A stretch of DNA of 49,313 nucleotides from Chitinophaga pinensis (GTDB lineage: Bacteria > Bacteroidota > Bacteroidia > SXHM01). Positions 10,019-46,692 of the stretch are shown piece after piece. The notes beneath the pieces are model-generated. The model was not told the DNA's origin. It saw only the letters and a list, made by a program, of their open reading frames with translations, and did not search any database. Position 1 is the first letter of the stretch. Every line of letters begins with the position of its first letter. The position numbers and the translations under genes were made by a program. The DNA is taken from positions 1 to 49,313 of the forward strand of contig CAMAVO010000003.1 of assembly GCA_945861685.1 (NCBI GenBank), in the 5' to 3' direction.

Positions 10019-12262
10019 TTAATCGTATTGGGTGTCTTTATTCTTGTTTTGAAGTTTCTCTTTGCCGTATCTCACACAATCTAATTCCACTTTTATGGGT
10101 GTTGATGGTCGCTCAAAAGGTCCTTGCGAAATACCAAGTGTAGGGTCGGCATAAACCTTTTTCATGTATAAAGCCCAAATAGGCAATGCCATAGAAGCAC
10201 CCTGCCCTAAAGCCATTCCGCGGAAGTGGGCGCTACGGTCTTCGCAACCTACCCATGCTCCGGAAACCAGATTAGGAGTTAATCCCATGAACCAGCCATC
10301 ACTGTTGTTTTGTGTAGTTCCGGTTTTTCCGGCAATGGGGTTCATCATTTTGTAGCGGTAGCGGAGTCTTACACCCGAACCTCCCTGCACAACACCTTCC
10401 AATAAATTCAATGTTACATAAGCAGTTTCTTCGCTCATGGCTTCGTTTGTTATAGGAACAAATTCCTGCAACACGTTTCCGTTTTTATCTTCAATGCGGG
10501 TGATGTAAACCGGCTTTGTGTAAACACCTTTATTTGCAAATGTTGAATTTGCTCCCACCATTTCATACACAGAAATATCAGGTGTACCGAGGCAGATAGA
10601 AGGAACCGGATCAATCGGTGAAGTAACGCCCATTTTGCGAACTAAGTTAATCACTGCTTCGGGACCGTATTGTTTCATTACCCAAGCAGTAACATAGTTG
10701 ACAGATTGTGCCAACGCAAACTTGAGTGAAATTTCTTCGCCTTCGTGTTTGTGATCTGAATTTTTTGGGGTCCAGTTTTTCAACAAACCGAAAGTTCCTT
10801 TTTCAAAAGTATAAGGACGGTTTAACACTTTGTAACAAGGCGAATACCCTTCCTGAATAGCCAATGCATATACAAATGGTTTGAAGGTTGAACCTACCTG
10901 ACGTTTGCCGTAATAGACCTGATCGTATTTAAAATGCTTATAGTTGATACCGCCAACCCAAGCTTTTACGTAACCGGTTTGCGGATCCATGGACATAAAG
11001 CCCGTGTTGAGAAAATGCTTGTAGTAACGGATGGAATCCATGGGTGTGAGCACTGTGTCAATTTCTCCTTTGTAGGAAAAGATGGACATTTCGGTTGGCG
11101 TGTTGAATGATCTTTCAATGGAATCCATTGGCGCTTTTTGCAGTTTCATTTTGCGGTAACGCTCCGTGCGTTTCATCGCCTGCTTCATCACTTTCGGAAT
11201 TTCTTCATCCGTAAGTTGATAGAAAGGAGCTTTGCTTCTGCCTTTATGTTCTTTGAAAAATGATTCCTGCAACACCGATAAATGTTCGCGCACTGCTTCT
11301 TCTGCATAAATCTGCATCCTGGAATTGATGGTGGTGTAAATCTTCAATCCATCGCGGTACAAATCATAATTGGTGCCGTCAGGTTTTTTATTTTCCTTGC
11401 ACCACCGGATCAATTCACCACGCAAAAATTCGCGGAAATAGGTTGCGCTTCCCTCATTGTGGTCAACACTTCTGTAAATGAGTTTAAGAGGTATTTGTTT
11501 GAGTGAATCATACTTTACTTTTTCGAGGTAACCGTAATTCACCATTTGCATCATCACCACATTGCGCCTGTGTTCGGTAGTGTCGGGTCTTCTGCGGGGA
11601 TTAAACAGTGAAGGATTTTTAGCCATGCCTACCAACAAAGCAGCTTCCTCAATTTTCAAGGAGTCAGGAGAGGTATTGAAATAAACGCTTGCTGCGGTTT
11701 GAATGCCCACGGCATTGTGAAGAAAGTCAAACTCATTGAGGTACATGGTCAGGATTTCCTGCTTGGTGTAACGTCTTTCCAGTTTCACGGCAATAATCCA
11801 TTCCGAAAGTTTTTCAATTACAATACCTCCGTTCATCGCTTTGCGGGTATTGAAAAGTTGTTTCGCTAATTGTTGTGTAATCGTGCTTCCTCCACCGCTG
11901 CTGGTGTTTCCGGTAAGAACGCCTTTTACTACACGCATCAATGCCCGAAAGTCAATTCCTGAATGTTCGTAGAAACGGGCATCTTCGGTTGCCACCAAGG
12001 CATTTACCAGATCGGGTGAAAGGTTTTCGTAGCGTGCCTGTGTGCGGTTTACTGCGTAGTAGCTTCCCAGCACTTTCTGGTCGGCAGAAATAACCTGCGA
12101 AGCAAGCATGCTCTTGGGGTTTTCCAGCTCTTCCAGACTGGGCAATTCGCCAAACAGACCTACTGAAATGAGCAGAATAATTAATCCAATCAGCAGCAAA
12201 GGGGATGCAAACAGCAGCCAGAAGAGACGTGCGTATTTATTGTTATCGGTGGTTTTTGCCAT
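10019..12262 (-). CDS. Class A penicillin-binding protein (PBP1A-type transglycosylase/transpeptidase)
   Basis: ATEDARF, GGGSTITQQLAK, GSTFKP (SxxK), SVN and KTGT motifs; N-terminal TM. ATG start at 12262. Confidence 0.93.
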   Translation of the reverse strand: MAKTTDNNKYARLFWLLFASPLLLIGLIILLISVGLFGELPSLEELENPKSMLASQVISADQKVLGSYYAVNRTQARYENLSPDLVNALVATEDARFYEHSGIDFRALMRVVKGVLTGNTSSGGGSTITQQLAKQLFNTRKAMNGGIVIEKLSEWIIAVKLERRYTKQEILTMYLNEFDFLHNAVGIQTAASVYFNTSPDSLKIEEAALLVGMAKNPSLFNPRRRPDTTEHRRNVVMMQMVNYGYLEKVKYDSLKQIPLKLIYRSVDHNEGSATYFREFLRGELIRWCKENKKPDGTNYDLYRDGLKIYTTINSRMQIYAEEAVREHLSVLQESFFKEHKGRSKAPFYQLTDEEIPKVMKQAMKRTERYRKMKLQKAPMDSIERSFNTPTEMSIFSYKGEIDTVLTPMDSIRYYKHFLNTGFMSMDPQTGYVKAWVGGINYKHFKYDQVYYGKRQVGSTFKPFVYALAIQEGYSPCYKVLNRPYTFEKGTFGLLKNWTPKNSDHKHEGEEISLKFALAQSVNYVTAWVMKQYGPEAVINLVRKMGVTSPIDPVPSICLGTPDISVYEMVGANSTFANKGVYTKPVYITRIEDKNGNVLQEFVPITNEAMSEETAYVTLNLLEGVVQGGSGVRLRYRYKMMNPIAGKTGTTQNNSDGWFMGLTPNLVSGAWVGCEDRSAHFRGMALGQGASMALPIWALYMKKVYADPTLGISQGPFERPSTPIKVELDCVRYGKEKLQNKNKDTQYD

Positions 12263-12354: not shown

Positions 12355-12424
12355 ATACAAATCTCATGAAGGGATTTGGGTATTAAACGAAAAGACTAAC
12401 AGGAAATTGTTGGAAGTGCAAATT

Positions 12425-12870
12425 GTTTTTTCTCTTCCGGAGTTTTCGCTGCCTCTTGCAGCGGTGTTGCTCCCACTTGCAAAGGTTTTGTTGTCTCCTG
12501 CAGGACTGTTGCTGCCTCTTGCAGAGCTTTTGTTGTCTCTTGCAAGACTGTTGTTCCTTCTTGCAGAGGTGTGTGCGTCTCTTGCAGGACTTTTGCTCCC
12601 TCTTGCGGAGGTGTTGCTGCCTCTTGCAGAGGTGTGAGTGCCTCTTGCAAGACTGTTGTTGCCTCTTGCAGCGGTGTTGCTCCCTCTTGCGGTACTTACA
12701 GCATTAATTGCATAGCAATTGGTGTTAATTGCGGCACAGTGAGTGTTAATTGTAGAGATGTTGCTCCCTCTTGCAGGACTGTGAGCGCCTCTTGCAGCGC
12801 TGTGAGTATGGGTTTATTGGGTAATAATGTCAGTTTATGGGGTGTTTTGTGCCTAATTGGCAGAAAACTG
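12425..12870. repeat. Degenerate 21-bp tandem array, about 18 units with core CTCTTGCA plus a degenerate tail
   Basis: Core recurs every 21 bp from 12432 to 12789 without phase slip. Three TAATTG variants at 12705, 12726 and 12747. A 24-bp exact repeat occurs at 12451 and 12661. Confidence 0.92.
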
Positions 12871-33316: not shown

Positions 33317-34270
33317 TTATTTTTCTTTGCTTGTTGGAGTCTCCACCGGGCTTTCAGCCGGTACATCATCGTTGTGACGGATTTTTGCAAAGCGAGCGCC
33401 TATCATTACTTCATGGCTTCCGCTGCTGTAGTTCTTGAGGCTCGACATCGGGAAGTCGTAAGCATAACCCAAAATAATGTTTTTGCCGATGTTGAAGCCT
33501 GCCATTACTGAAACGGCATCTTTGATTCGGAAAGCACTTCCTGCCCAAACCACATCGCGGTAACCGATTTTAAGACCAAGGTCAATCTGCATAGGAACCG
33601 GAGTAACGTATTTTAAAAGGAAGGAAGGTTGCACTGTCCAGTTGTCGCCCAGGTTAAAGGTATAGCCTCCCATGATGAGCAGGTGGCGGGCAAGGCGGCT
33701 TTGTGCATCAGATACGTTGTCAAAGAATTTTAACTTGTTGCCAATCAACTGCGGCATTGAAACTCCGAAGTAGAACTTTTTGGTGTAAAGTTGAATTCCG
33801 AAGGTTGCATCAGGAGCAATAACACTCATTACTCCGTTGCTCATTGCCGGGTCGTTACCTTCTTTCAAGGTAACTTTTGAGCCATCGATTTTAAATTGCA
33901 TTACACCAAATCCAAGACCGAAAGAGAGTTTCAGTTTTTGTGAAAGTTTTACATGATAGGCATAAGAAAGGTATGCCCCCGTGCGACTGGTAGGCCCGGT
34001 AACATCGCTATACACAGCGCCTCCAAAGCCCATGTTGTGCTTGCGGTGCGGACCGTGCACACTCAGCACATACGTGCGGGGAGCATCGGTAACACCCACC
34101 CACTGGTAGCGGTTGTTCGATTTTACTTCGTAGAAATCCTCGGTGCCTGATACGGCAGGGTTGAGGATATAATTGTTCAGCATGTATTGTGCATACTGTG
34201 GCACTTGCTGGGCTTTAAGGCCTGAAACAGTGCAAACAATTACTGTAAGAAGGGTGTATAGCTTTTTCAT
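33317..34270 (-). CDS. PorP/SprF-family T9SS beta-barrel protein
   Basis: QQ.PQYAQYM.N...LNPA..G, RYQWVG...AP, GYAYD and SSGSHEV motifs; directly downstream of a type B CTD protein. Confidence 0.93.
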   Translation of the reverse strand: MKKLYTLLTVIVCTVSGLKAQQVPQYAQYMLNNYILNPAVSGTEDFYEVKSNNRYQWVGVTDAPRTYVLSVHGPHRKHNMGFGGAVYSDVTGPTSRTGAYLSYAYHVKLSQKLKLSFGLGFGVMQFKIDGSKVTLKEGNDPAMSNGVMSVIAPDATFGIQLYTKKFYFGVSMPQLIGNKLKFFDNVSDAQSRLARHLLIMGGYTFNLGDNWTVQPSFLLKYVTPVPMQIDLGLKIGYRDVVWAGSAFRIKDAVSVMAGFNIGKNIILGYAYDFPMSSLKNYSSGSHEVMIGARFAKIRHNDDVPAESPVETPTSKEK

Positions 34271-34376: not shown

Positions 34377-37300
34377 TTATCTCGCTATTGTTATAGGTCC
34401 GGTATAAGGTTCAGTTGTTCCATTGTGCAGGTCTATTACATAATAGTATGTTCCTACAGGCAGGTCTTTGCCTTTGTATCTTCCATCCCAAGCTGTTCCG
34501 TAGCCTTTAGAATAGAAGAGTTCTTGTCCCCAACGGTTGTAAACCATTACCACTGCTTCCGGGAAATTATTGATAAAGTCAATAATCCAGGTATCATTAA
34601 TACCGTCATCATTTGGTGTTATACCATCAGGGAAAACAATTCCGGGAGATACTTCAATGGTTAACGAATCAACCGCAGAGCATCCGTTTTCATCTGTTCC
34701 GGTTACAAAGTAGATAGTAGTTATTGTTGGTGATGCAATCGGGTTGTAGATGTTTGCATTATCCAACCCATCGCTTGGCGACCATGAATAAGTTCCGTTG
34801 GTTCCAGCACCGGCAGCTTCTAATTGCACCGTAGTTCCTGAAAGAATTTCAGCACCAGCACCCGCATCAATTACAGGAAGAGGGTTAACGGTAACAGTTA
34901 CTGTGTCATAATCCACGCAACTGAAGTTGGTAACCTGAACAATATAGGTTGTAGTAGTAGTGATGGTTGCAACCGGATTGTCGATGTTGTTGTAATTTAA
35001 TCCTGAAGCAGGAGTCCACAGATAACCGCTTCCGCCTGTTGCCTGCAACTGAACCTGATCACCAATACAAATTGTAATATCGGGTCCTGCGTTTGCATCA
35101 ATTACTATCTGCTCAACCACTGTTACAATGAGTGTTTTAGAGCAACCTGTGTTGTCGGTTACGGTTACGGTATAAACTCCGGGAAGCAGGTTAGTCAGGT
35201 CTTCGGTAGTTGCTCCGTTATCCCAATCGTAGGTATATCCCGGAACACCACCTGATACAGAAAGGTCAATTGCTCCGTTGTCAGTATTAGTACATGTTGG
35301 TGCAGTTACAGAAGCAGAGACTACAATAATCGGAGGCTCGCTGATGGTAACAGTTGCTGTGGTATCACAACCATTCGCATCGGTTACAGTTACTGTGTAA
35401 GTACCTGCACAAAGACCGGTAGCAGTTGCAGTTGTTTGTCCGCCCGGAACCCAGATGTAAGAGTATACAGGAGTTCCACCTGCAGGTGTTACTGTAGCTG
35501 TTCCATCGCAATTGCCTCCGCAGCTTGCGTCTACACCTGTTGCAGCTGCAGTAAGCAATGCAGGTTCGGTAATGGTAATTGTTGAAATTGAAACGCAGTT
35601 TGCAGCATCGGTTACGGTTACTGTATAAGTGCCCGGGCAAAGATTGGTTGCCATAGCAGAATTTTGTCCGTTAGCCCATACAAAGCTATATGGCTCAACA
35701 CCGCCTGTTGCAATTGCAGTTGCCGTTCCATCGCACTGGCCAAAGCAACTTACGTTGTTGAACAATGGAATTGCAGTTGCCAAAGCATTCTGGTCGCTGA
35801 TGATGACTGTGGAAGTAGTATTACAACCGATTGCATCAGTAATAACAACACTGTATGTTCCAATACAAAGATTAATTGCGGTGCTATCGGTTTGTCCGTT
35901 ATTCCACAGATAAGAGTATGGAGGAACACCACCCAATACGCTAACTATTGCATACGCATCGCAATTTCCAGCGCAAAGTATTTCACTGAAATCAGTTATA
36001 GAAGAAGTTAGGATTGGTGGTTCAAGAATGATAACGTTGACAGAAATGGTACAACCGTTTCCATCGGTAACTAGCACTGAATAATTTCCTGCGCAAAGAG
36101 CTACAGCGGTGCTGTCGGTTTGTCCGTCACTCCATGCATATTGGTAAGGAAGTGTTCCACCACCAACGTTAGCAGTTGCTGTTCCATCACACACACCACC
36201 GCAACTTGCATTGGTTGTAGTCGGGTAAAGTGTAAGGATAGGAGGCTCAGTGATTACAATGGTTTGTGTTGTGTCGCAACCGTTGGCATCTGTAACGGTT
36301 ACCGTGTAGGTTCCTGCACACAGATTAATTGCAGTTTCGGTAGTTTGACCTGATGGAGACCACAAGTAAGAGTATGCCGGTGTTCCACCGTTTGCTGTTG
36401 CAGTAGCAGAACCATCGCATAGTCCACCGCAGCTTACATTATTAATTACTGTAGCATCAAATACAAGTAAAGTTGGTTCTGTTACAATTACTGTATCCTG
36501 ACCTGTGCAACCATTAGCATCGGTTACTAACAAGTAGTATTCGCCCGGACAAAGGCTATCAACAAAGTCTATTGTTTCCAGTCCTGTAGTGTTCAGCCAC
36601 TGATACGTGTAAGGAGCAGTTCCGCCCGCAGGGGTTGCAGTTACATCTGCATTGCAGAAACCAAAGCAGGTTACGTTATTCACTGCAAATGTCATAGTAA
36701 CAGGTGCCGGTTCAGTAACGTTGATAACAGCTGATTGCACGCAACCAAGAGAGTCGGTAACGGTAACAGTATAAATACCTGCACACAATGCAGTAGCGGT
36801 ATCACCTGTTTGAGAAGTTGGATTCCATGAATAGGTGTATCCTGTAACTAACGAAGGAGTACCACCTGTAGCAACTACCCAAGCCGAAGCATCGCAAACA
36901 CCGTTGCAACTTGCAGGCAGCATGTCTGTTGTAAGTGTGATTTCGGTAGGCTCACCAATTAATACTGAAGTTCCCTGAACGCATCCGTTGGCATCCGTAA
37001 CCTGAACAATGTATGTTCCAGCGCAAAGACTGTCTGCCGTTGCATCGGTTTGGTTACCGGGAGTCCATAAATAGGTGTAAGCACCGGTGCCGCCTGTTGC
37101 GGTAACTGTTGCTGTTCCATCGCAAACGCTAAAGCACAAAGCATCTGTCCATGAAGTTGACAAAACAATAGGTGTAGGTTCTGTAACCGGAATGTCAGTC
37201 CATGTAGAAGTGCAACCGTTAGCATCGGTAACAACTACACTATACGTTCCGGGGCAAAGTGTTACTGCAGTTGCAGTAGTTTGTCCATCGTTCCACAGGT

Positions 37301-40300
37301 AAGAATATGGTAACACTCCGCCTGAAGGAATGATAGTAGTTGTGCCATCGCATGCTCCGTTGCAGGTTATGTTAGAAACAACAGGAAGACTGAGCGCTAA
37401 CAAAGAAGGTTCGGTCACAATCACTATATCGGTTGCAATGCAACTAGAAGCATCGGTAACCTGAACAGTATAAACTCCCGCACAAAGATTAGTAGCAGTA
37501 TCAGTGGTTTGTCCATCGCTCCACAGGTAAGTGAAAGGGGCAGTGCCAAGCGTTACAGTAACGGTAGTAGCACCATCACAACTTCCACTGCAGGTTGCAG
37601 GCGTTGATGAAACTGAAATGCTTGAGTTAGGAACGTTGTTTACAGGGAATGCCAGTGATTCAACACATCCGTTGGCATCTGTAATGTCAACCGTGTAAAC
37701 TCCGGCACAAAGTCCAGTTATTGAATTTGTTGTTTCACCACCACCCCACAAGTATATGTAAGGCGCTTGCCCGTCTGAAGGAGCAAGTGTTATGCTTCCA
37801 TTGCAAACTCCGCAATCAGCAGTAACAACAACTTCGTTTGCCTGAATTTGTAAAGGCTCAGCAATAGTAACTGTTTCTGTAAGCGTACAGTTGTTGGTAT
37901 CGGAAACCTGCACAAAATAAGTTCCTGCGCATAATCCTGAAACTGAAGTAGTAGTTGCTCCTCCCGGTACCCACAGGTAATCGTAAGGTGCAATTCCTCC
38001 TGTTACCCCTGTAACCGTAGCAGAACCATCACATGAACCAAAGCAACTTGCATCGGCTGTAGTAACTGTAACTGAAGTTGGGCCACCTGTATTGCTGATA
38101 GCAACTGCAAAGCTTCCTGTGCAACCGTTAGCATCCGTAACAAAAACAGGATAAACACCTGCGCACAGGTTAGTTGCTGTTGCAGTAGTAGCGCCTGTTC
38201 CCCATAAGTAGGTGTAAGGTGCAGTTCCACCGATAACTGATAAAGTAGCTGTTCCATCACACTGTCCGCAAGTAGCAGGAGTTGAAGTGTAAGTCATATC
38301 TACTATTCCCGGCTCAACGATAGTTACTGAGGTGGTAGCTGTACAACCATTAGCATCGGTAACAGTTACTGAGTATGTTCCCGGAATAAGATTGCTCAAA
38401 TCCTGAGTAGTTTGCCCGTTATCCCACAGGTAAGTGTAACCCGGAGTTCCGCCTGAAACAGTCAGGTCAACTGAGCCGTCTGTGTTTCCGTTGCACGAAA
38501 TATCGGTAACGTTGGTTGTTAGTGAAATAGCAGTTGGCTCAGAAACGTTAACGTTTGCTGTTTGAGTACAACCATTGCCATCTGTAACAGTAACTGTATA
38601 GAAGCCTGCGCAGATATTGCTTAATGAAGTTGTTGTTTCACCGCCCGGAGACCATAAGTAAGTATAACCAGGAGTTCCGCCCGAAACCGAAATACTTGCC
38701 GAAGCATCACAAACGCCATTGCAACTTGCAGGTGTTGTAGTTGGTGTAATTACAATTGGTGTAGGTTCAGCAAGGATGATTACAGCTACTTGCTGGCAAC
38801 CGTTTGCATCGGTAACAGTAATGGTGTAGGTGCCTGCACAAAGGTTGTTGATGGAGTTGGTGGTTTCACCACCAGGTGTCCATAGGTAAATGTATGGTGC
38901 TGACCCGCCTGAAATGCTTGTGTTTATGAAGCCATCACAACTTCCGTTGCAGGTTGGTTCGCTTGAAGTAACATCGATTACAATAGCCGAGTTACTTGGA
39001 ACAGCAACTGTTGCAATTGTTTCGCAACCGTTTGCATCCGTAATAGTGCAGGTCATAATACCCAAGCAAAGATTGATAGCAGTTTGTGTTGTTTGTCCGT
39101 CACTCCACAGATAGGTGTATGGAACAAAACCACCGCTTGGGGTAACTGTGGCAGTTCCGTTACACTGACCGTTACAAAGAACAGGAGTAGCACTTGAAGT
39201 ATAAGTAATAGGAGCAGGCTCGTTGATTGTAACCGAAGCAGTATCGTCACAACCGTTAAAGTCGGTTACCACAATTTGAAAGGTTCCGGCACAAAGATTA
39301 TTTACGGTGTTGGTTGCAGGTCCTGAAGGCAGCCAGAAATAAGTGAAAGGGCTTGTTCCTCCAACCTGTGTAGCTATTGCCGTTCCGTCACAAACGCCAT
39401 TGCAGCTTGCATTGGTTCCTGTTGCAGAAGCAACCAGGTCACCCGGTTCAATAATAGTTACCGTTGCTGAAGCTGTGCAACCGCTTGCATCCGTTACTGC
39501 AACGTTGTAAATATTAGGACACAAACCTGTTGCAGTTTGTGTTGTTTGTCCACCCGGTGTCCATAGGTAAGTATAGCCACCGCTTCCACCGCTTGCGCTA
39601 ACTGTTGCTGAACCATTACATAATCCGAAACAACTTACGTTACTGCTTGACGAAATATTTACTGAAAGTGCTGAAAGCGGTTGAGTGATTACAACATTAT
39701 TGATTGCTGTTGTACACCCGTTTGCGTCAGTAATAGCCACTGAATAAGTACCCGGAGCAAGACCTGTGCGGTCTTGTGTGGTTTGTCCGCTTGGTGTCCA
39801 TAAATAGGTGAAAGGACCAGTGCCACCGCTTACTGTTACATCAATAGCTCCGTTGTTTGCTCCGAAACAGTTGATATTAGTATGTGTTTCTGATGCAGAA
39901 AGTACAGCGGGTTGAGTAATAGTAACCGATAAATTTGAATTACATCCGTTGATGTCTGTAACTGTTACCGTATAGGTATTAGGTGCAAGAGCGGTGCGGT
40001 CTTCTGTAGTTTGTCCGCTTGGTGCCCATAGATAAGCATAAGGAGCAGTTCCACCTGAAACAGTGATATTAATAGCTCCGTTGTTAAGCCCGTTACAGGT
40101 TACGTTTGTATGTGTTTCGGTAATAGTAATTGAAGTTGGCTGAGCAATGGTATAAGAGTAAACGCCACCGCAACCATTGGCATCAGAGAACGTCAGGATA
40201 TAGGTTCCTAATGCAAGTCCGCTGATATCCTGTGTGGTTGCTCCGGTAGACCATGAATAGGTATAGATTGGAGTTCCACCGCTTACAGTAAGGTCAATAG

Positions 40301-43300
40301 AACCTGTTCCGCTTCCGTTACAAGGAATGTTGGTTACGTTAGCAGAAAGTGTAATGGTTGTTGGTTCGGTAACGGTATAAATTGCAAACGAAGTACAGCC
40401 TGTTGTTACATCGGTAACACTTACTGAATATGAGCCTGCAGGAATAGAAGATAAATCCTGAGTAGTTGCTCCGTTACTCCATGTATAGGTATAGTTTCCT
40501 GAACCACCTGAAACGGTGAGGTTAACAGCACCGTTGCTTCCGCCTGCACAATTAATATTGGTGATTGCAACAGAAAGTGTAAATGCTGAGGTTTCGCTTA
40601 CTGTGAAGAATGAGTTAGCTGTGCAACCGTTTGCATCGGTAACAGTTACTCCGTATATAGCACCCGGTAATCCGCTAATGTCTTGTGTTGTTGCTCCGTT
40701 TGTCCATAAGTAAGTATAAGGTGCAGTTCCACCGCTTACACTTAAATCAACGGCACCTGTGCTGGTGCTGCAACTTGAATTGGTTATGCTGGATGTAAGC
40801 GTAATTCCGCTTCCTGCAGTAACTGTGAAGCTTGTAAGACCCGAGCATCCAGTTGTAATATCTGTTACCGTTACAGTATAAGCTCCGGGAGCAAGTGCTG
40901 TGCGGTCTTGTGTAGTTTGTCCGCCTGGTGACCATAAATAAGAGTAGTTGCCTGAACCACCGGAAACGGTAACATCAATTGCACCGTTGGTTGCCGCACA
41001 ATTCGTAGCAGGAGTTACAACTCCTGAAACGTTAGGCGCTCCTGTTTCTGATACATTGATTGCTGTTGATTGAACGCAACCCAGGGTAATATCTGTAACG
41101 GTTACAGTATAAATTCCGGGAGCAAGACCTGTTAAATCCTGAGTGGTTAATGAGCCCGGAGTCCATGAATAGGTATAGTTTCCTGATCCACCTGTAATGG
41201 TTATATCTATTGATCCCGTGTTTGCATTGCATTGTGAGTTTACAACACTTACTATATTAATGGTAAGATTTGAAACCTCAGTGATGGTAACATTAAGGCT
41301 TGATGAGCAACCGTTGGCATCTGTAACGGTAACATTGTAAAATCCTGCTGAAAGCCCGCTGATGTCTTGTGTTGTTGCACCGTTGCTCCATCCATAAGTA
41401 TAAGGTGCAGTTCCACCTGAAACGCTTAGGTTAACAGAACCATTGGCTCCGCTTGCACAGCTTACATTTACATGTGTTTCGGTTAAAGCGATTGCAGCTG
41501 GTTGTGTAATTGTAAATCCGGCACCTGCTGTGCAACCGTTGGCATCTGTAATAGTTACCGAGTTGGTGCCTACACCTAGTCCGCTGATGTCTTGTGTGGT
41601 TTGTCCACCGGGTGACCATAAATAGGTATAAGGAGGAGTTGCCCCACCAAGTGTAAGGTCTATACTTCCGTTGCTGCCGCCATTGCAGGTTACATGAATA
41701 ATATCTACAAATCCATTATATCCAGCAGGCTGTGTAATGGTAAATGATAAAAATGAAGAACAAAGACTTACTGCATCTGTAACTGAAACGGTATAAGTTC
41801 CGGGTGAAAGACTGCTGATATCCTGTGTTGTTGCTCCGTTTGACCACGAATAGGTATATGAGCCTGAACCGCCTGAAACGGTAAGGTTAACACTTCCGTT
41901 GCCGGCACCTGCGCAGGTTATATCCGTTTCAACCGAGGTAACTGTTATGCCATTTGAACCGCTTACAGGGAATACGCTGTTAGCTGTGCAACCATTAGCA
42001 TCTGTAACGGTAACTGAATATATTCCGGCACCAATGCTGCTGATGTCTTGTGTTGTTACCCCGTTGCTCCACAGATAAGTTAAAGGAGCAGTTCCACCCG
42101 TAACAGTTAAATCAACTGCACCGCTGTTGCTGCTGCAATTAGAGTTGGTAACAGAACCAGAAAGCGTCATTGCATTATTATAGGATACAGCAAATGTTGC
42201 TATCGCAATACAACCTGAAGTGTTATCAGTAACGGTAACGGTATAGCTGCCTACTGCAAGATTGATGCGATCTTGTGTAATTTGTCCGCTTGGCGCCCAT
42301 AAATAAGAATAACTTCCTGAACCGCCTGTAACGGTAATATCTATTGCACCATTAGTAGCGTTGCAATTTGTTGCATTAGTTACTGTACCTGTAATATTAG
42401 GATTGCCTGAGTTCTGAACATTATTTGCCAATGTTTGCGTGCAACCCAATGTTACATCGGTAACAGTAACGGTATAAACTGCGGCATTAAGACCGCTGAT
42501 GTCTTCTGTGGTTGCACCTCCAGGTGACCATAAATACGTGTAGTTTCCCGAACCGCCCGCAACAGTTAAATTAACTGCTCCGTCACTTGCGCCACATGTT
42601 GCATCAGTAATAAGTGATGAAACGCTGAGGTTCGATAATTGTGTAATGGTTGCGCTTCGTGTAGAGGTACAACCGTTGGCATCGGTAATGTTTACTGAAT
42701 AAAAGCCGGGTGCCAAGCCTGATAAATCCTGAGTGGTTTGTGCAGTGTTCCAAAGGTAGGTGTACGGTGATGTTCCGCCTGAAACAGTTATATCAATAGA
42801 GCCGGTGTTTGAGCCGGCACAGTTTACATTCACATGTGTTTCGGAACTGATAAGAATTGTTGGTTGCGAAACCACGATTGCCGGTGGACTAAGTGTGCAA
42901 GTGTTTGCATCGGTAATAACTACTGAGTAACTTCCAGCTGCAAGTCCGCTTATATCTTGTGTTGTTGCTCCGTTAGACCATAAATAGGTGTAAGGTGCTG
43001 TTCCTCCACTTACTGTTAAATCAATGGCTCCGTTCAATTGCCCGAAACACAAAACGTTGGTAACAACTGAACTTTGGCTCATTCCGGCAGGTTCTGTAAC
43101 AGTAACGGTTCCGTTGGTTGTGCAACCAAGTGCATCGGTAACTACTACGTTGTGAACACCTGCTGACAAGCCTGTTGCTGTTTGTGTTGTTTGATTGCTT
43201 GGTGACCAGAGGTAGGTATATCCAGGAGTTCCACCTGAAGGTGTTGCTGTTGCAGTTCCGTTTGCCCCACCGTTGCACGAAACAGGTGTGAACGACATTG

Positions 43301-43691
43301 TAGTAGTTACGCCTGCTGCCGGTTGTGTTATGGTTATGGTAGTTGAAATTTGTGTAGTTCCGCAACCACTATTGTCTGATTCAAATACCACAATGTAATT
43401 ACCTGCCGGTAAGCCGGTAAAGGTGTGTGTTAATATATTGTCAGTGAATGTCAGGAAGATAGAAGGTACCTGCACCACGCCAAAGTCATAAGGTGCAACG
43501 CCTCCGTTACCTACAATGGTTATGCTTCCGTCACTCCCGCCAAAGCAGGTTACGGGGGTCATTGTTACAGATGTAAAGCTCAACGGACATTGGGCCTGTG
43601 CTGTGTTACTTGAGAAGGTGGTAAGGAATACCGCAAGCACCAGGGCTGCACTTTTCAAAATAGTATTCATAGGGCGTATAATTTTTTCCAT
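34377..43691 (-). CDS. Giant SprB-like surface adhesin with tens of Cys-containing ~75-aa SprB repeats and a T9SS type B CTD
   Basis: Repeats of C....G.I...V.GG..PY.Y.W......L..G.Y.V.VTD.NGC; C-terminal ITPNDDGIND.W...YNRWG...WDG...GTYYY; cognate porP/sprF downstream. Start may be 43670. Confidence 0.92.
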   Translation of the reverse strand: MEKIIRPMNTILKSAALVLAVFLTTFSSNTAQAQCPLSFTSVTMTPVTCFGGSDGSITIVGNGGVAPYDFGVVQVPSIFLTFTDNILTHTFTGLPAGNYIVVFESDNSGCGTTQISTTITITQPAAGVTTTMSFTPVSCNGGANGTATATPSGGTPGYTYLWSPSNQTTQTATGLSAGVHNVVVTDALGCTTNGTVTVTEPAGMSQSSVVTNVLCFGQLNGAIDLTVSGGTAPYTYLWSNGATTQDISGLAAGSYSVVITDANTCTLSPPAIVVSQPTILISSETHVNVNCAGSNTGSIDITVSGGTSPYTYLWNTAQTTQDLSGLAPGFYSVNITDANGCTSTRSATITQLSNLSVSSLITDATCGASDGAVNLTVAGGSGNYTYLWSPGGATTEDISGLNAAVYTVTVTDVTLGCTQTLANNVQNSGNPNITGTVTNATNCNATNGAIDITVTGGSGSYSYLWAPSGQITQDRINLAVGSYTVTVTDNTSGCIAIATFAVSYNNAMTLSGSVTNSNCSSNSGAVDLTVTGGTAPLTYLWSNGVTTQDISSIGAGIYSVTVTDANGCTANSVFPVSGSNGITVTSVETDITCAGAGNGSVNLTVSGGSGSYTYSWSNGATTQDISSLSPGTYTVSVTDAVSLCSSFLSFTITQPAGYNGFVDIIHVTCNGGSNGSIDLTLGGATPPYTYLWSPGGQTTQDISGLGVGTNSVTITDANGCTAGAGFTITQPAAIALTETHVNVSCASGANGSVNLSVSGGTAPYTYGWSNGATTQDISGLSAGFYNVTVTDANGCSSSLNVTITEVSNLTINIVSVVNSQCNANTGSIDITITGGSGNYTYSWTPGSLTTQDLTGLAPGIYTVTVTDITLGCVQSTAINVSETGAPNVSGVVTPATNCAATNGAIDVTVSGGSGNYSYLWSPGGQTTQDRTALAPGAYTVTVTDITTGCSGLTSFTVTAGSGITLTSSITNSSCSTSTGAVDLSVSGGTAPYTYLWTNGATTQDISGLPGAIYGVTVTDANGCTANSFFTVSETSAFTLSVAITNINCAGGSNGAVNLTVSGGSGNYTYTWSNGATTQDLSSIPAGSYSVSVTDVTTGCTSFAIYTVTEPTTITLSANVTNIPCNGSGTGSIDLTVSGGTPIYTYSWSTGATTQDISGLALGTYILTFSDANGCGGVYSYTIAQPTSITITETHTNVTCNGLNNGAINITVSGGTAPYAYLWAPSGQTTEDRTALAPNTYTVTVTDINGCNSNLSVTITQPAVLSASETHTNINCFGANNGAIDVTVSGGTGPFTYLWTPSGQTTQDRTGLAPGTYSVAITDANGCTTAINNVVITQPLSALSVNISSSSNVSCFGLCNGSATVSASGGSGGYTYLWTPGGQTTQTATGLCPNIYNVAVTDASGCTASATVTIIEPGDLVASATGTNASCNGVCDGTAIATQVGGTSPFTYFWLPSGPATNTVNNLCAGTFQIVVTDFNGCDDTASVTINEPAPITYTSSATPVLCNGQCNGTATVTPSGGFVPYTYLWSDGQTTQTAINLCLGIMTCTITDANGCETIATVAVPSNSAIVIDVTSSEPTCNGSCDGFINTSISGGSAPYIYLWTPGGETTNSINNLCAGTYTITVTDANGCQQVAVIILAEPTPIVITPTTTPASCNGVCDASASISVSGGTPGYTYLWSPGGETTTSLSNICAGFYTVTVTDGNGCTQTANVNVSEPTAISLTTNVTDISCNGNTDGSVDLTVSGGTPGYTYLWDNGQTTQDLSNLIPGTYSVTVTDANGCTATTSVTIVEPGIVDMTYTSTPATCGQCDGTATLSVIGGTAPYTYLWGTGATTATATNLCAGVYPVFVTDANGCTGSFAVAISNTGGPTSVTVTTADASCFGSCDGSATVTGVTGGIAPYDYLWVPGGATTTSVSGLCAGTYFVQVSDTNNCTLTETVTIAEPLQIQANEVVVTADCGVCNGSITLAPSDGQAPYIYLWGGGETTNSITGLCAGVYTVDITDANGCVESLAFPVNNVPNSSISVSSTPATCSGSCDGATTVTVTLGTAPFTYLWSDGQTTDTATNLCAGVYTVQVTDASSCIATDIVIVTEPSLLALSLPVVSNITCNGACDGTTTIIPSGGVLPYSYLWNDGQTTATAVTLCPGTYSVVVTDANGCTSTWTDIPVTEPTPIVLSTSWTDALCFSVCDGTATVTATGGTGAYTYLWTPGNQTDATADSLCAGTYIVQVTDANGCVQGTSVLIGEPTEITLTTDMLPASCNGVCDASAWVVATGGTPSLVTGYTYSWNPTSQTGDTATALCAGIYTVTVTDSLGCVQSAVINVTEPAPVTMTFAVNNVTCFGFCNADVTATPAGGTAPYTYQWLNTTGLETIDFVDSLCPGEYYLLVTDANGCTGQDTVIVTEPTLLVFDATVINNVSCGGLCDGSATATANGGTPAYSYLWSPSGQTTETAINLCAGTYTVTVTDANGCDTTQTIVITEPPILTLYPTTTNASCGGVCDGTATANVGGGTLPYQYAWSDGQTDSTAVALCAGNYSVLVTDGNGCTISVNVIILEPPILTSSITDFSEILCAGNCDAYAIVSVLGGVPPYSYLWNNGQTDSTAINLCIGTYSVVITDAIGCNTTSTVIISDQNALATAIPLFNNVSCFGQCDGTATAIATGGVEPYSFVWANGQNSAMATNLCPGTYTVTVTDAANCVSISTITITEPALLTAAATGVDASCGGNCDGTATVTPAGGTPVYSYIWVPGGQTTATATGLCAGTYTVTVTDANGCDTTATVTISEPPIIVVSASVTAPTCTNTDNGAIDLSVSGGVPGYTYDWDNGATTEDLTNLLPGVYTVTVTDNTGCSKTLIVTVVEQIVIDANAGPDITICIGDQVQLQATGGSGYLWTPASGLNYNNIDNPVATITTTTTYIVQVTNFSCVDYDTVTVTVNPLPVIDAGAGAEILSGTTVQLEAAGAGTNGTYSWSPSDGLDNANIYNPIASPTITTIYFVTGTDENGCSAVDSLTIEVSPGIVFPDGITPNDDGINDTWIIDFINNFPEAVVMVYNRWGQELFYSKGYGTAWDGRYKGKDLPVGTYYYVIDLHNGTTEPYTGPITIAR

Positions 43692-43795: not shown

Positions 43796-43803
43796 CAAAT
43801 ATA
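43796..43803 (-). promoter_or_regulatory. -7 element (TATATTTG) for the adhesin gene
   Basis: TAnnTTTG in the AT-rich upstream gap. Confidence 0.5.
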
Positions 43804-43949
43804 AAATAGTTGTCGTTTGTCGAAAATTCTTTTTCCCTTGCAGGCAAAGGATTTTAGAAACATTTTGAAGAAAATTGTGTCCACCTGAGAATACAGGTTA
43901 CTAACAATTTTGGGTGTTAAAATAATATGAAAAAGTGAAAAAAACGTTT

Positions 43950-44615
43950 TCAGTAAATAATAAATAGCCCTTTTTCTTCGGGTTCGTTATAAAAAACCGA
44001 TTGTGCCGCACTGTTTACGGTTTTGCAAAATTCATAAAGGTTGTTCATTTTTTCAACGCGCTGGCTGGAGTAGCGTATGCGCAGGTGTTTAAAATACTCC
44101 TGTTGGGTTTCTTTTTCCAGAATGGTTTGGGTTTTTGTGCCCAGGTTGGTTAGCAAAATGGCGGGCATTCCCACTGCAGCAAGTTCGGCACTATAATCTT
44201 CAGCAATTTTTTTCATTACCAGTAGCCACATGTATTGGTTAAGCTGGGTGGCACGTGCTTTTTTGCGTTCGGTAAATCCAAATTCTTCGGCTTTTCGTTT
44301 TTTAGCCGGAAATGCTTTTTTTACATAATGTTCCAATTCGCTGGCTATTGTAAATCCTGCTTTTTTCGCTTGCTCAAGTTCTTCTGAATGGTGTTGCAGT
44401 TGATCCATTACCGTTTCATCGGTTTCGGTGGCTTCACATTCGTTGATAGATGATAGCCAATTGCCGGCATAGGCGGCATTAAGGTCGGGGTCAAAGGCGC
44501 TGAACCGGGCAAGGTAATTTAAAAAGTGCGTGTGCAGCGTTTCGCTTTTTTGAATAAGCAGAGTATCTTCCATTGAAAAATCGCGTTCGCGTTCTTTTGG
44601 TTGTGTTGTTGCCAT
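43950..44615 (-). CDS. Hypothetical 221-aa cytoplasmic protein, probably all-alpha
   Basis: ATG-started ORF with amphipathic helical patterning; no signal peptide, TM or motif I can name. Confidence 0.8.
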   Translation of the reverse strand: MATTQPKERERDFSMEDTLLIQKSETLHTHFLNYLARFSAFDPDLNAAYAGNWLSSINECEATETDETVMDQLQHHSEELEQAKKAGFTIASELEHYVKKAFPAKKRKAEEFGFTERKKARATQLNQYMWLLVMKKIAEDYSAELAAVGMPAILLTNLGTKTQTILEKETQQEYFKHLRIRYSSQRVEKMNNLYEFCKTVNSAAQSVFYNEPEEKGLFIIY

Positions 44616-44635
44616 GGTTTAGGTTTATTTTTAGG

Positions 44636-44904
44636 TTGTCCGCAAATATAATGCAATTGTCCGAAGATATTACTTAGTTGTCCGCTAAAATTATATAGTT
44701 GTCCGTAAAATTTACTTAGTTGTCTATTAAAATTACTTGATTGACCGCAAAAATGATAGTTATTATTTTTGCGGTCAGCTACGTTATCTTTGCGGACAAC
44801 ACAGAAATAATTGCGGACAACACAGAAGTAATTGCGGACAACACAGAAGTGATTGCTCCCACCCAAGTAAATAGAGCGGACAACACAGAAAATAGTGCGG
44901 ACAA
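44636..44904. repeat. Mirror-symmetric 21-bp-period array: six TTGTCCGC-type units, central hairpin, seven GCGGACAA-type positions
   Basis: Left cores at 44636, 44657, 44678, 44699, 44720, 44741. Right cores at 44771, 44792, 44813, 44834, (44855 degenerate), 44876, 44897. Central 13-bp stem TGACCGCAAAAAT/ATTTTTGCGGTCA. Confidence 0.93.
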
Positions 44905-44970
44905 CGCAGAAAAATGCTGTTTTTTGATGAAATTGGGGCTAAACAGGAGTGTTTAGAGTTTAAGGAAGGC

Positions 44971-46692
44971 TTACTCCACTAACTTGCCTTCAGCCAGTTT
45001 GCGCTCCAACAAATCAGAACCCCCGCCCGCAGATTTCGCCTTGTTCCAGTATTCTTTGGCGGCATCTTTTTCGCCCAATTGCCAAAGGGCATCACCATAG
45101 TGCTCGTATTCTACACCGCTTGGTTTTTCAGATGATTTAAGTGCTTTTCCAATCCACTCTTTAGCTTCTGTAAATTTACCTTGCTGATACATTATCCAGC
45201 CGTAGGTATCTTCAAACGATGCGTTGTTGGGCTCCAGTTCATTTGATTTTTTCGACATTTCTTCGGCACGCGCCATATTCTCTTTGCGCAGCGAAAGGTA
45301 ATAGGCATAGTTATTCAAAACGGTTGAGTTTGCCGGGTCAATCTCCAGTGCTTTTTCATAAGCGGCATCACTCTCTTTATGCTTTTTCTGAAAGTTGTAT
45401 GCATCTCCCAGGGTTGAATAAAATTGTGACGAAAGTTCTTTGTCTTTTTTTGCATACACAACTCCTGAATTTAAAATGGAGATAGCATCATCGTACTTTT
45501 TCAATTGCATATTGGCAATGCCGTTGAAAAGATAAACCATTGCCTGCGTTGGAAAAAGTTCCAGCGCCTCGTTGCTTTCTTTCAGCAGGCCATCGTAGTC
45601 TGATAAATTATAATCAACCTGCAGGAGCGAACTCCACACTAAAAATTTGCTGTTGTCTAATTGTATGGTTTTACGAAACGCCTCCTGTGCCGCTTTCATT
45701 TTGCCTTCGCGGAATAAAAAATCAGCGTGCATGGCATGTGCTTTTCCTTCTTTGGGATGCACAGCCACTAAAATTTCTGTCAGCTCCAATGCCTGCGAAG
45801 TAAGTGCCTTGTCCACCTCGGTAAGCACATAATAACTGATCAGAATATTTATTTTGGTGTCAATATCAAGGTCGGGATTTTCAAATGCTTTTTTCAACTC
45901 CTGATACGATTTTTCTTTATCACCTTTTTCGCGGTGATAGTTTGCCAACGAAAGATGAAGTAATGGGTCGGAAGGATTTAGTTTCTCCATTTTTTCATAC
46001 AGGGCAAAGGCTTCGTCTTTTTTATTTAGCGAAAGATAGAGGTCGGCCAGAATGCCCAGGTAGCGGGAGTTATCAGGAAAATAGGCAATCAGTTTTTTTA
46101 TTTCCTCGGCAGCTTTTTCTCCCTGTTTCATACTCAGGTAAATGCTGTGTTTTTGAATGGAAATCTCTTCGGTGATGCCTAAATTTTCTTCAATGCGGTT
46201 GTAAACCTTTATACCCTCTTCATACTTACCGGCTTTCAGTAATTCGGTAGCCCATTCATATAAAAACTCAGGCTTTTTAGGGTAATCATTCACTAACGTT
46301 TCCAACACATTTGCAGCAGCCTCATTTTTGCCTAATTGAGAATAAATATCGGATAACAACATACGATACCACTCATTTTTTTGGTCAATTTTTATGGCGT
46401 TGATGATGAGCACAATTGCCTCGTCATCTTTGCGCGCGTTGAAATAAATTGTACCCAACTCATACATTGCAGCAGCATTGTTGGCATCAATTTTTAAGCA
46501 TTCTTTGAATAATTCAACAGCGTTGGCAGGGTTGCCCAGCAAGCGTTCTTTGGTGGCATCAATAAAAATACTTTCAGCTTTTGCTTTGTCCTGTTCCGAA
46601 AGTCCTTTCTTGTTTTTCTTTTGTGCGAAAGAAGAAACTGTTACCAGTAAAAAGATAAAAGTAGTGCTGAATATTTTTGTGAGAAGCCTCAA
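44971..46692 (-). CDS. Secreted tetratricopeptide-repeat protein
   Basis: Signal peptide, many TPRs, C-terminal VLNNYAYYLS, DTYGWI and EHYGD motifs. Confidence 0.88.
   Translation of the reverse strand: MRLLTKIFSTTFIFLLVTVSSFAQKKNKKGLSEQDKAKAESIFIDATKERLLGNPANAVELFKECLKIDANNAAAMYELGTIYFNARKDDEAIVLIINAIKIDQKNEWYRMLLSDIYSQLGKNEAAANVLETLVNDYPKKPEFLYEWATELLKAGKYEEGIKVYNRIEENLGITEEISIQKHSIYLSMKQGEKAAEEIKKLIAYFPDNSRYLGILADLYLSLNKKDEAFALYEKMEKLNPSDPLLHLSLANYHREKGDKEKSYQELKKAFENPDLDIDTKINILISYYVLTEVDKALTSQALELTEILVAVHPKEGKAHAMHADFLFREGKMKAAQEAFRKTIQLDNSKFLVWSSLLQVDYNLSDYDGLLKESNEALELFPTQAMVYLFNGIANMQLKKYDDAISILNSGVVYAKKDKELSSQFYSTLGDAYNFQKKHKESDAAYEKALEIDPANSTVLNNYAYYLSLRKENMARAEEMSKKSNELEPNNASFEDTYGWIMYQQGKFTEAKEWIGKALKSSEKPSGVEYEHYGDALWQLGEKDAAKEYWNKAKSAGGGSDLLERKLAEGKLVE

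Follow-up and report, generated by a model that had tools for sequence, protein, structure and literature searches.

A mirror-image array of 21-bp units upstream of the F221 gene in Bacteroidota, a candidate docking platform on DNA

Plasmid iterons commonly repeat every two helical turns, 21 bp being two turns of B-DNA, and omega protein is a small regulator that binds arrays of heptad operators. The iterons in parC of plasmid R1 measure 11 bp and run in the same direction, and LytTR sites consist of 9-bp direct repeats with a 12-13-bp spacer. parC is described as having two sets of five-fold repeated iterons, beside the promoter and upstream of the genes served; ParR is a small protein whose cooperative binding to the repeats bends the DNA into a defined complex (PMC2241845). 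Direct repeats are also the sites of the small regulator BldC (PMC5859096) and of AgrA and other LytTR regulators (PMC4227749). The closest repeat described in Bacteroidota is BrickBuilt of Porphyromonas gingivalis, a minisatellite-MITE with a 23-nt unit that forms one family, occurs 19 times in a genome and has leader and tail subunits and inverted-repeat ends (PMC4596501). It was the only such element found in our literature search (supplementary files and subscription journals were outside its scope), which turned up no account of intergenic arrays with a fixed 21-bp period in this phylum. To our knowledge, gene control in Bacteroidota is poorly understood outside a few model species.

Here we describe an array found in a stretch of 49,313 nucleotides (the window), part of a 3.04-Mb assembly. 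The array lies in the gap between the stop codon of a TPR-repeat gene and the ATG of a gene encoding a protein of 221 amino acids, F221. The features of the locus are as follows.

44620..44918, no strand: whole array of period 21 bp, about 14 unit lengths, occupying the intergenic gap (autocorrelation at period 21, Tandem Repeats Finder, repeat search)
44636..44748, minus strand: promoter-proximal arm, six units; on the F221 strand the cores read (G/A/T)CGGACAA(C) (sequence, 21-nt row layout)
44742..44777, no strand: central palindrome, 13-bp perfect stem, 10-nt loop, dyad at 44759.5 (sequence, repeat search)
44771..44905, plus strand: distal arm, seven units with GCGGACAA-type cores, the unit at 44855 degenerate (repeat search)
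44643..44650, minus strand: promoter-like TATATTTG box in the last proximal unit, 35 nt before the F221 ATG (matches TAnnTTTG)
43950..44615, minus strand: F221 gene, 221 aa; product all-helical, acidic and lacking a signal peptide; the conserved partner of the array
43799-43806, minus strand: second TATATTTG box, within the 258 nt separating F221 from the giant gene, about 110 nt before the giant-gene ATG
34377..43691, minus strand: giant surface protein (adhesin) gene, 3104 aa, downstream of F221
33317..34270, minus strand: PorP/SprF type IX secretion membrane protein gene (Pfam PF11751, E 1.2e-82)
44971..46692, minus strand: upstream TPR-repeat gene, stop codon 53 nt before the array

A first-pass annotation, made from the letters alone, had described six cores facing seven in exact register about a dyad at 44759/44760, and our row layout bears this out: the step between units is exactly 21 bp throughout the array, centre included. 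In the proximal arm, six TTGTCCGC-type cores start on the plus strand at 44636, 44657, 44678, 44699, 44720 and 44741 and read, in that order, TTGTCCGC, TTGTCCGA, TTGTCCGC, TTGTCCGT, TTGTCTAT and TTGACCGC. The seven GCGGACAA-type cores of the distal arm start at 44771, 44792, 44813, 44834, 44855, 44876 and 44897; five are exact, that at 44771 is GCGGTCAG and the degenerate one at 44855 is GCTCCCAC. The core at 44741 is mirrored by 44771-44778 about the dyad at 44759.5. The perfect closing stem of 13 bp was found where it had been placed, with 44742-44754 pairing with 44765-44777 around a 10-nt loop, and the innermost two units carry a mirrored A/T change (TTGACCGC and GCGGTCA). Tandem Repeats Finder called period 21 on both arms. 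The repeat search recovered direct families D1-D3 and inverted pairs I1-I8 within the array, six copies of the distal arm falling at 21-bp spacing into a single direct-repeat family; super-periods of 42 and 63 bp were also present.

Ten of the window's 54 matches to GCGGACAA (at most one mismatch) fall within the 269 bp of the array, where shuffled sequence is expected to give about 0.2 (mean 37 per 49,313 bp). Nowhere else in the 3.04-Mb assembly does this core form a phased cluster, the four other listed clusters being irregularly spaced. Core positions are nearly invariant within arrays and spacers are variable. The annotation had also stated that the arms have different spacers, which is true insofar as each arm has its own flavour; the spacers are not unrelated, however. 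Laid out in one orientation, both arms consist of GTTGTCCGC, an A/T-rich stretch and TTAC or TTTC, the spacer motif of one arm being offset from that of the other by about 3 nt. This makes the spacers related, although shifted and separately homogenised, in agreement with the earlier view that core and phase were kept while each arm was homogenised on its own.

The -7 box of Bacteroidetes promoters, known from the Bacteroides and Flavobacterium promoter literature, is TAnnTTTG, and we take the TATATTTG box at 44643-44650 to be of this type. The same box occupies the same place in the orthologous locus L033, and a TAnnTTTG box was found at or just after the last proximal unit at L001, L033, L037 and L040. 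Many family loci have no such box after the array, so the promoter position at 44643 is a candidate only. Since the giant gene has a TATATTTG box of its own, the array may control F221 alone; judged by this motif, the adhesin gene may have its own promoter. A scan for sigma-70-type promoters and terminators gave nothing above shuffles, this promoter type being inappropriate for the phylum. Strong terminators of the upstream gene adjoin the distal arm in L002, L003 and L034. The window contains no tRNA genes.

The locus shares with parC/ParR the two phased repeat sets beside a promoter and upstream of the genes served. It differs from the sets of five described in PMC2241845 in its 21-bp units, in their number (6 + 7) and in their inverted arrangement, and further in being chromosomal and in belonging to a genome with dozens of arrays of different units. 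A Pfam scan of the flanking genes revealed neither an actin-like ATPase nor a ribbon-helix-helix family. Iterons repeat directly, in helical phase, at about 17-22 bp; the step of exactly 21 bp falls within this range, though the arms are inverted, and no Rep initiator was found beside the array with Pfam, NCBIfam or PHROGs (the neighbours are the TPR protein and F221). Short sites arranged head-to-tail or head-to-head, which a multimer would read cooperatively, are common to this array and to those of iterons, omega and BldC (PMC5859096). Unlike iterons and tandem operators, the present array has no adjoining replication or partition gene, is far longer than typical operators and has a partner family, that of F221, with no known DNA-binding fold. 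A core of about 9 bp and a variable spacer of about 12 bp, giving a 21-bp step upstream of a promoter, recall LytTR sites; those come in pairs, whereas arrays here run to 5-22 units, and the mirror form is not typical of them. As for LytTR regulators as candidate readers of the arrays, the genome has only six such genes and none lies beside an array that was checked. With BrickBuilt, which is always intergenic, the array has in common that it is an intergenic minisatellite of Bacteroidota, with no spacers between units and carrying promoter elements (PMC4596501), but its unit is 21 bp, units are locus-specific and no common ends were seen. A CRISPR array was ruled out by the period (21 bp instead of about 55-75), the related variable parts and the inverted arms. 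By analogy, the array would work most like parC/ParR and iteron arrays and follow the 9 + 12-bp logic of LytTR sites, yet it lacks features that define those systems: neither Rep, ParM nor ParR was found among the neighbours scanned, and a LytTR gene does not adjoin it.

The upstream regions of homologous F221 loci were set out in 21-nt rows. Ten close loci, encoding proteins of 40-87% identity (L001, L002, L003, L006, L007, L008, L033, L034, L037 and L040), were compared, the closer orthologues P0003 and P0004 (86-90% identity) being left out. Homologues that lose the register between the arms, or keep only one arm, would have spoken against the array as first described. Instead, all ten have two inverted arms in continuous 21-bp phase; nine are clear and the AT-rich L008 is irregular. 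Each arm has about 5-8 units, and the array ends about 20-60 bp before the ATG. Seven close loci, all with proteins of 213-222 aa, are clear mirrors by score (inverted complementarity of at least 0.57 and z of at least 2.9). The core is locus-specific, for example TCGGGAGCAATT / AATTGCTCCCGA, ATGGGAAT / ATTCCCAT and GTTTGTCG / CGACAAAC at different loci, and at many of them the two units at the centre make up an extended palindrome with few mismatches; in L003 and L040 it spans 34 bp without any. In the orthologous locus L033, gene order is the same, protein identity is 67% and F221 is followed by a giant-protein orthologue (74% identity over 812 aa). L033 has kept the core GTTGTCCGC while its spacers differ, and its arms are unequal, with 8-9 and 4-5 units. 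The proteins of L002 and L034 are 72% identical and their cores differ.

At greater distance, long forms of the protein that stand alone (n = 6) are preceded by 12-15 units in one direction only, with a step of 22 bp at L027, and those that come first in a tandem pair (n = 4) have no array of their own, the array standing before the short form. Judging by the sequences compared, conservation of the layout holds within the close subfamily, and distant members are one-directional. The best period in the 400 nt upstream (range 12-33) was 21 in 19 of 26 family loci across the phylum, and the period-21 score reached at least 0.5 in 15 of the 26, against 110 of 14,817 background windows of this genome. 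In several genomes (L021, L022, L023 and L024), a long (about 300-320 aa) and a short form (about 215 aa) lie in tandem with an array only between them; the sequence upstream of the pair at L022 resembles, by eye, an XRE-type HTH gene.

The period is not confined to these loci. In a genome-wide scan of the 3.04-Mb assembly, period 21 accounted for 43 arrays (each at least 105 bp long) and period 42 for 65; every other period from 10 to 45 gave at most 10. Examples are C187:3815-4282, C128:8074-8461 and C9:31515-31876 of assembly G000. By orientation, 32 of the 43 are clearly one-directional and 9 ambiguous; 2 were flagged as mirrors, the present array and a 7-bp repeat, so that only the present one is clearly mirrored. 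Units agree to at least 80% at a median of 9 of 21 positions, many units contain a small internal palindrome, and the consensus has an A-tract in 19 of the 43 arrays. Consensus units differ among the 43, except for one core, TTCCTAAA, which is common to two unlinked arrays with a 21-bp step (C2:13431-13760 and C126:5061-5312). These have unrelated 12-nt spacers, and the proteins downstream (1010 and 1326 aa) are not homologous; the N-terminus of the 1010-aa protein resembles a signal peptide. A core shared by two unlinked loci looks like the mark of a shared trans factor.

All six F221-family genes of the genome have, by eye, an array in front: those on C3, C25, C50 and C122 pass the scan, that on C156 lies about 220 nt upstream and that on C1 is too irregular. 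When array-adjacent proteins were compared as single sequences with the F221 profile, only those on C25, C50 and C122 matched. Other arrays precede HTH_26 genes, housekeeping genes and genes for uncharacterised and signal-peptide proteins. Two of them (C112:242-494 and C41:17892-18084) lie directly upstream of genes for 123-aa Cro/C1-type HTH_26 proteins, which are possible array-binding regulators. A second large protein family with upstream 21-bp arrays (C4:11955-13169, locus L075, and C14:31792-32178; 118 database matches) has an N-terminal domain of about 215 aa joined to either one or two CarboxypepD_reg domains. At the C-terminus, the domain shares 44% identity with that of the long F221 forms, and its N-terminal domain was not detectably related to F221 in a profile comparison (hhalign probability 7.8%). 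By crude gene calls, 19 arrays lie between tandem, 11 between divergent and 5 between convergent genes, compared with 773, 322 and 153 genome-wide, so arrays are not depleted between convergent genes. In a small, non-independent sample of five genomes with the F221 family and four without, those with it included G201 (12 arrays of period 21 in 400 kb sampled), G115 (4 in 400 kb), G369 (none of period 21 and three of period 42 in 200 kb) and G331 (3 in 200 kb, low-complexity). Among those without it, no array was found in G075 and G099 (400 kb each) or in G091 (200 kb), and one, coding-like, in G119 (200 kb).

F221 belongs to no family in Pfam, NCBIfam or PHROGs; with Pfam only Dak2 appeared below the cut-off, other matches being at chance level, and no signal peptide was predicted. 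Its pI is 5.8, and those of two long forms were computed as 4.75-5.76. The AlphaFold model (pLDDT 97) is all helical, a long bundle with one helix of 55 residues. Foldseek returned no match to this model at E <= 0.001 in the PDB or among viral structures, and the best VIA match, LemA (Z 11), is inside the range common for helical bundles. The profile matched only designed helical bundles among Protein Data Bank sequences, at E 0.014 and weaker, and a protein atlas gave only unnamed Bacteroidota clusters, apart from a lead to DUF6261 (0.88) for which Pfam gave no confirmation. No recognisable DNA-binding fold was found in the model or in the family and fold searches. A symmetric homodimer joined through the most conserved residues was predicted with a score of 0.68, against 0.00 for the best of three controls; among proteins of solved structure, 20 of 30 one-chain pairs and 1 of 23 single chains reach the mark for this score. 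Agreement between runs was at least 60% of contacts, with a partner pLDDT of at least 88. The prediction supports F221 being a symmetric homodimer; it speaks for a dimer, not for DNA binding. The family comprises 602 clusters at 50% identity (E <= 0.001), was present in 24 of 401 sampled Bacteroidota genomes and has short (about 220 aa) and long forms (about 300-400 aa), three of seven scanned long forms having a CarboxypepD_reg-like C-terminal domain. Downstream of its members are genes for type IX secretion cargo, a TonB-dependent receptor, or DUF6642 and PorZ.

The reading that we favour, with a probability of roughly 45%, is that the array is a phased, two-fold-symmetric docking platform on DNA that controls F221. 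About 13 copies of the 9-bp core GTTGTCCGC would be offered to a protein directly against the F221 promoter. Because the cores are exactly two helical turns apart, all copies lie on one side of the double helix, and the two inverted arms around the central palindrome would make the platform two-fold symmetric. A sequence-specific protein of the same symmetry might nucleate at the palindrome and then spread cooperatively over both arms; the resulting nucleoprotein complex would set how strongly F221, and perhaps also the adhesin gene that follows, is transcribed, and would be tuned by gain or loss of whole units. The binding of a protein, its identity and whether it raises or lowers transcription are points that we infer. 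Among candidates, only F221 itself occurs one-to-one with the arrays, yet its fold gives no sign of DNA binding.

Several observations favour the docking platform: the strict two-turn step carried through the dyad, the conservation of core over spacer both within arrays and in L033, the core TTCCTAAA at two unlinked loci, and the persistence of the mirror layout while cores change. It is further supported by the link of 21-bp arrays to the F221 family (10 close loci, 19/26 phylum-wide), by the upstream terminators adjoining the distal arm and the TAnnTTTG boxes at the proximal end, and by the predicted symmetric homodimer. Against it stand the nature of F221 as an acidic helical bundle with no solved relative, a period that is not special to this family (43 arrays with different units), the presence of arrays between convergent genes at no reduced rate, and the many family loci with no TAnnTTTG box after the array. 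The different cores of the 72%-identical pair L002/L034, the absence of the window's other array (12418-12806) from sister genomes and the differences of whole units between strains also tell against it. Together, the two-turn step, locus-specific core, mirror layout and link to the F221 family point to a design of promoter-upstream control region that has not been described. The family is widespread, occurs one-to-one with arrays and stands ahead of genes for surface proteins, type IX secretion and TonB receptors.

A bolder extension, which we think improbable as a whole, is that F221 and its relatives form a new class of array-reading proteins. They would be symmetric dimers shaped like rods, long enough to match a footprint of two turns (21 bp); each paralogue would polymerise along its own locus-specific array, protein and core would co-evolve, and orphan 21/42-bp arrays would be further targets or decoys. 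Phased operator arrays are known, and the finding would go beyond them if the F221 family proved to be the reader: such a genome would possess mutually insulated switches for its surface-protein loci.

The serious rival to the docking platform, in our estimate rather unlikely, is a fast-evolving minisatellite with no dedicated function, in which 21-bp units in intergenic DNA of this lineage arise and are kept uniform by replication slippage and hairpin-templated repair, and the perfect central stem is a by-product of quasi-palindrome correction. Sequencing runs that carry this DNA are lake and freshwater metagenomes, and contigs from four such studies are nearly identical outside the array and differ inside it. 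Exactly one 21-bp unit is missing at 44808, in the distal arm, in X7, X13 and X16, and 21 bases in all are missing around 44710-44742, in the proximal arm, in X4, X13 and X16. In X7 and X13, A>T at 44744 is accompanied by T>A at 44775; the two positions mirror each other in the central stem, and the paired change restores the canonical core on both sides. Such differences indicate that whole-unit slippage and, at the centre, hairpin-templated correction are active. Quasi-palindrome correction is an established mechanism that would yield paired changes of this kind, so the pair at 44744/44775 need not reflect selection for pairing.

Turnover is also seen at the window's second array (12418-12806), which consists of 18 one-direction units with consensus AGAGCTGTTGGTGCCTCTTGC and lies upstream of a gene for a 747-aa protein (10019-12262, minus strand) that, by its N-terminus, looks like a penicillin-binding protein. 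Five sister genomes carry this gene at 92-98% identity. In all four with enough upstream sequence the array is missing before it, and the fifth, with only 199 nt upstream, is likewise without it. The unrelated units of the 43 arrays, their gene contexts, which are like random intergenic DNA, and the 42- and 63-bp super-periods, which point to block duplication, agree with a minisatellite as well. What slippage does not explain is the pronounced excess of periods 21 and 42 (43 and 65 arrays, no other period exceeding 10), the conservation of cores and not of spacers, within arrays and in the 67%-identical orthologue pair, and a two-arm layout retained at ten of ten close loci despite a changing core. 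The same genome holds conserved and rapidly turning-over arrays of one period, which makes the 21-bp arrays a test case for selection versus mutational mechanism alone in bacterial minisatellites.

It is also conceivable, if unlikely, that the array is structural DNA acting independently of sequence, its two-turn repeats summing small bends in one plane to give a curved or easily wrapped segment whose shape is read by RNA polymerase or a nucleoid protein. The step of two B-DNA turns would suit such a role, the period is all that the 43 arrays have in common, and 19 consensus units carry an A-tract; the other 24 do not, however, and bending gives no reason for a fixed 9-bp core with drifting spacers, nor for the recurrence of a core at two unlinked loci or in an orthologue.

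The first-pass annotation had also read the array as RNA, as a ladder of short helices separated by internal loops; the array would then be transcribed, cores would pair between the arms, and the product would be a leader structure or a small-RNA precursor. Folding does give ladders on both strands (-96 and -99.7 kcal/mol, z -8.1 and -7.7), although any inverted repeat would give such values on both strands. The mirror layout is kept in close homologues, and the one paired change among strains preserves the central stem. Across nine loci, arm complementarity was 0.51-0.67 in register, 0.44-0.61 when the arms were slid by one or two units (21 or 42 nt) and 0.24-0.37 out of phase. Pairing that is about as good after a shift by whole units implies that there is no unit-by-unit compensation. 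What the arms share is one repeated motif, with no matching of each unit to its partner. Degenerate units have no matching mirror partners, arms are unequal in relatives such as L033, and the one-direction arrays of distant family members and of 32 of the 43 genomic loci could not form such a hairpin. With the candidate -7 box in the last proximal unit, most of the array would stay untranscribed, and the upstream terminators of L002, L003 and L034 adjoin the distal arm. Rfam gave no match in the whole window at gathering thresholds, none of the 24 sequencing runs listed as carrying this DNA is an RNA run, and four metatranscriptomes contained next to no matching words. We consider the RNA ladder quite improbable. 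The annotation's other reading, head-to-head sites on DNA two helical turns apart, is the explanation that we favour.

That the array consists of plasmid-type iterons or is a partition centromere, whether still active or a relic, is very improbable, since the period of about two turns and the two arms beside a promoter, which recall R1 parC as outlined in PMC2241845, are set against a chromosomal setting among housekeeping and type IX secretion genes, neighbouring genes in which a scan found no Rep, ParM, ParR or ParA-like family, and 43 arrays per genome.

Words of the array core were also seen elsewhere in the window. GCGGACAA and ACGGACAA recur on the coding strand of the giant gene (35664-42289, minus strand), several of them at 228-bp spacing (35664, 35892 and 36120; 39783 and 40011). 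This spacing arises from the 76-aa coding repeats of the giant protein gene, and the words are probably unrelated to the array.
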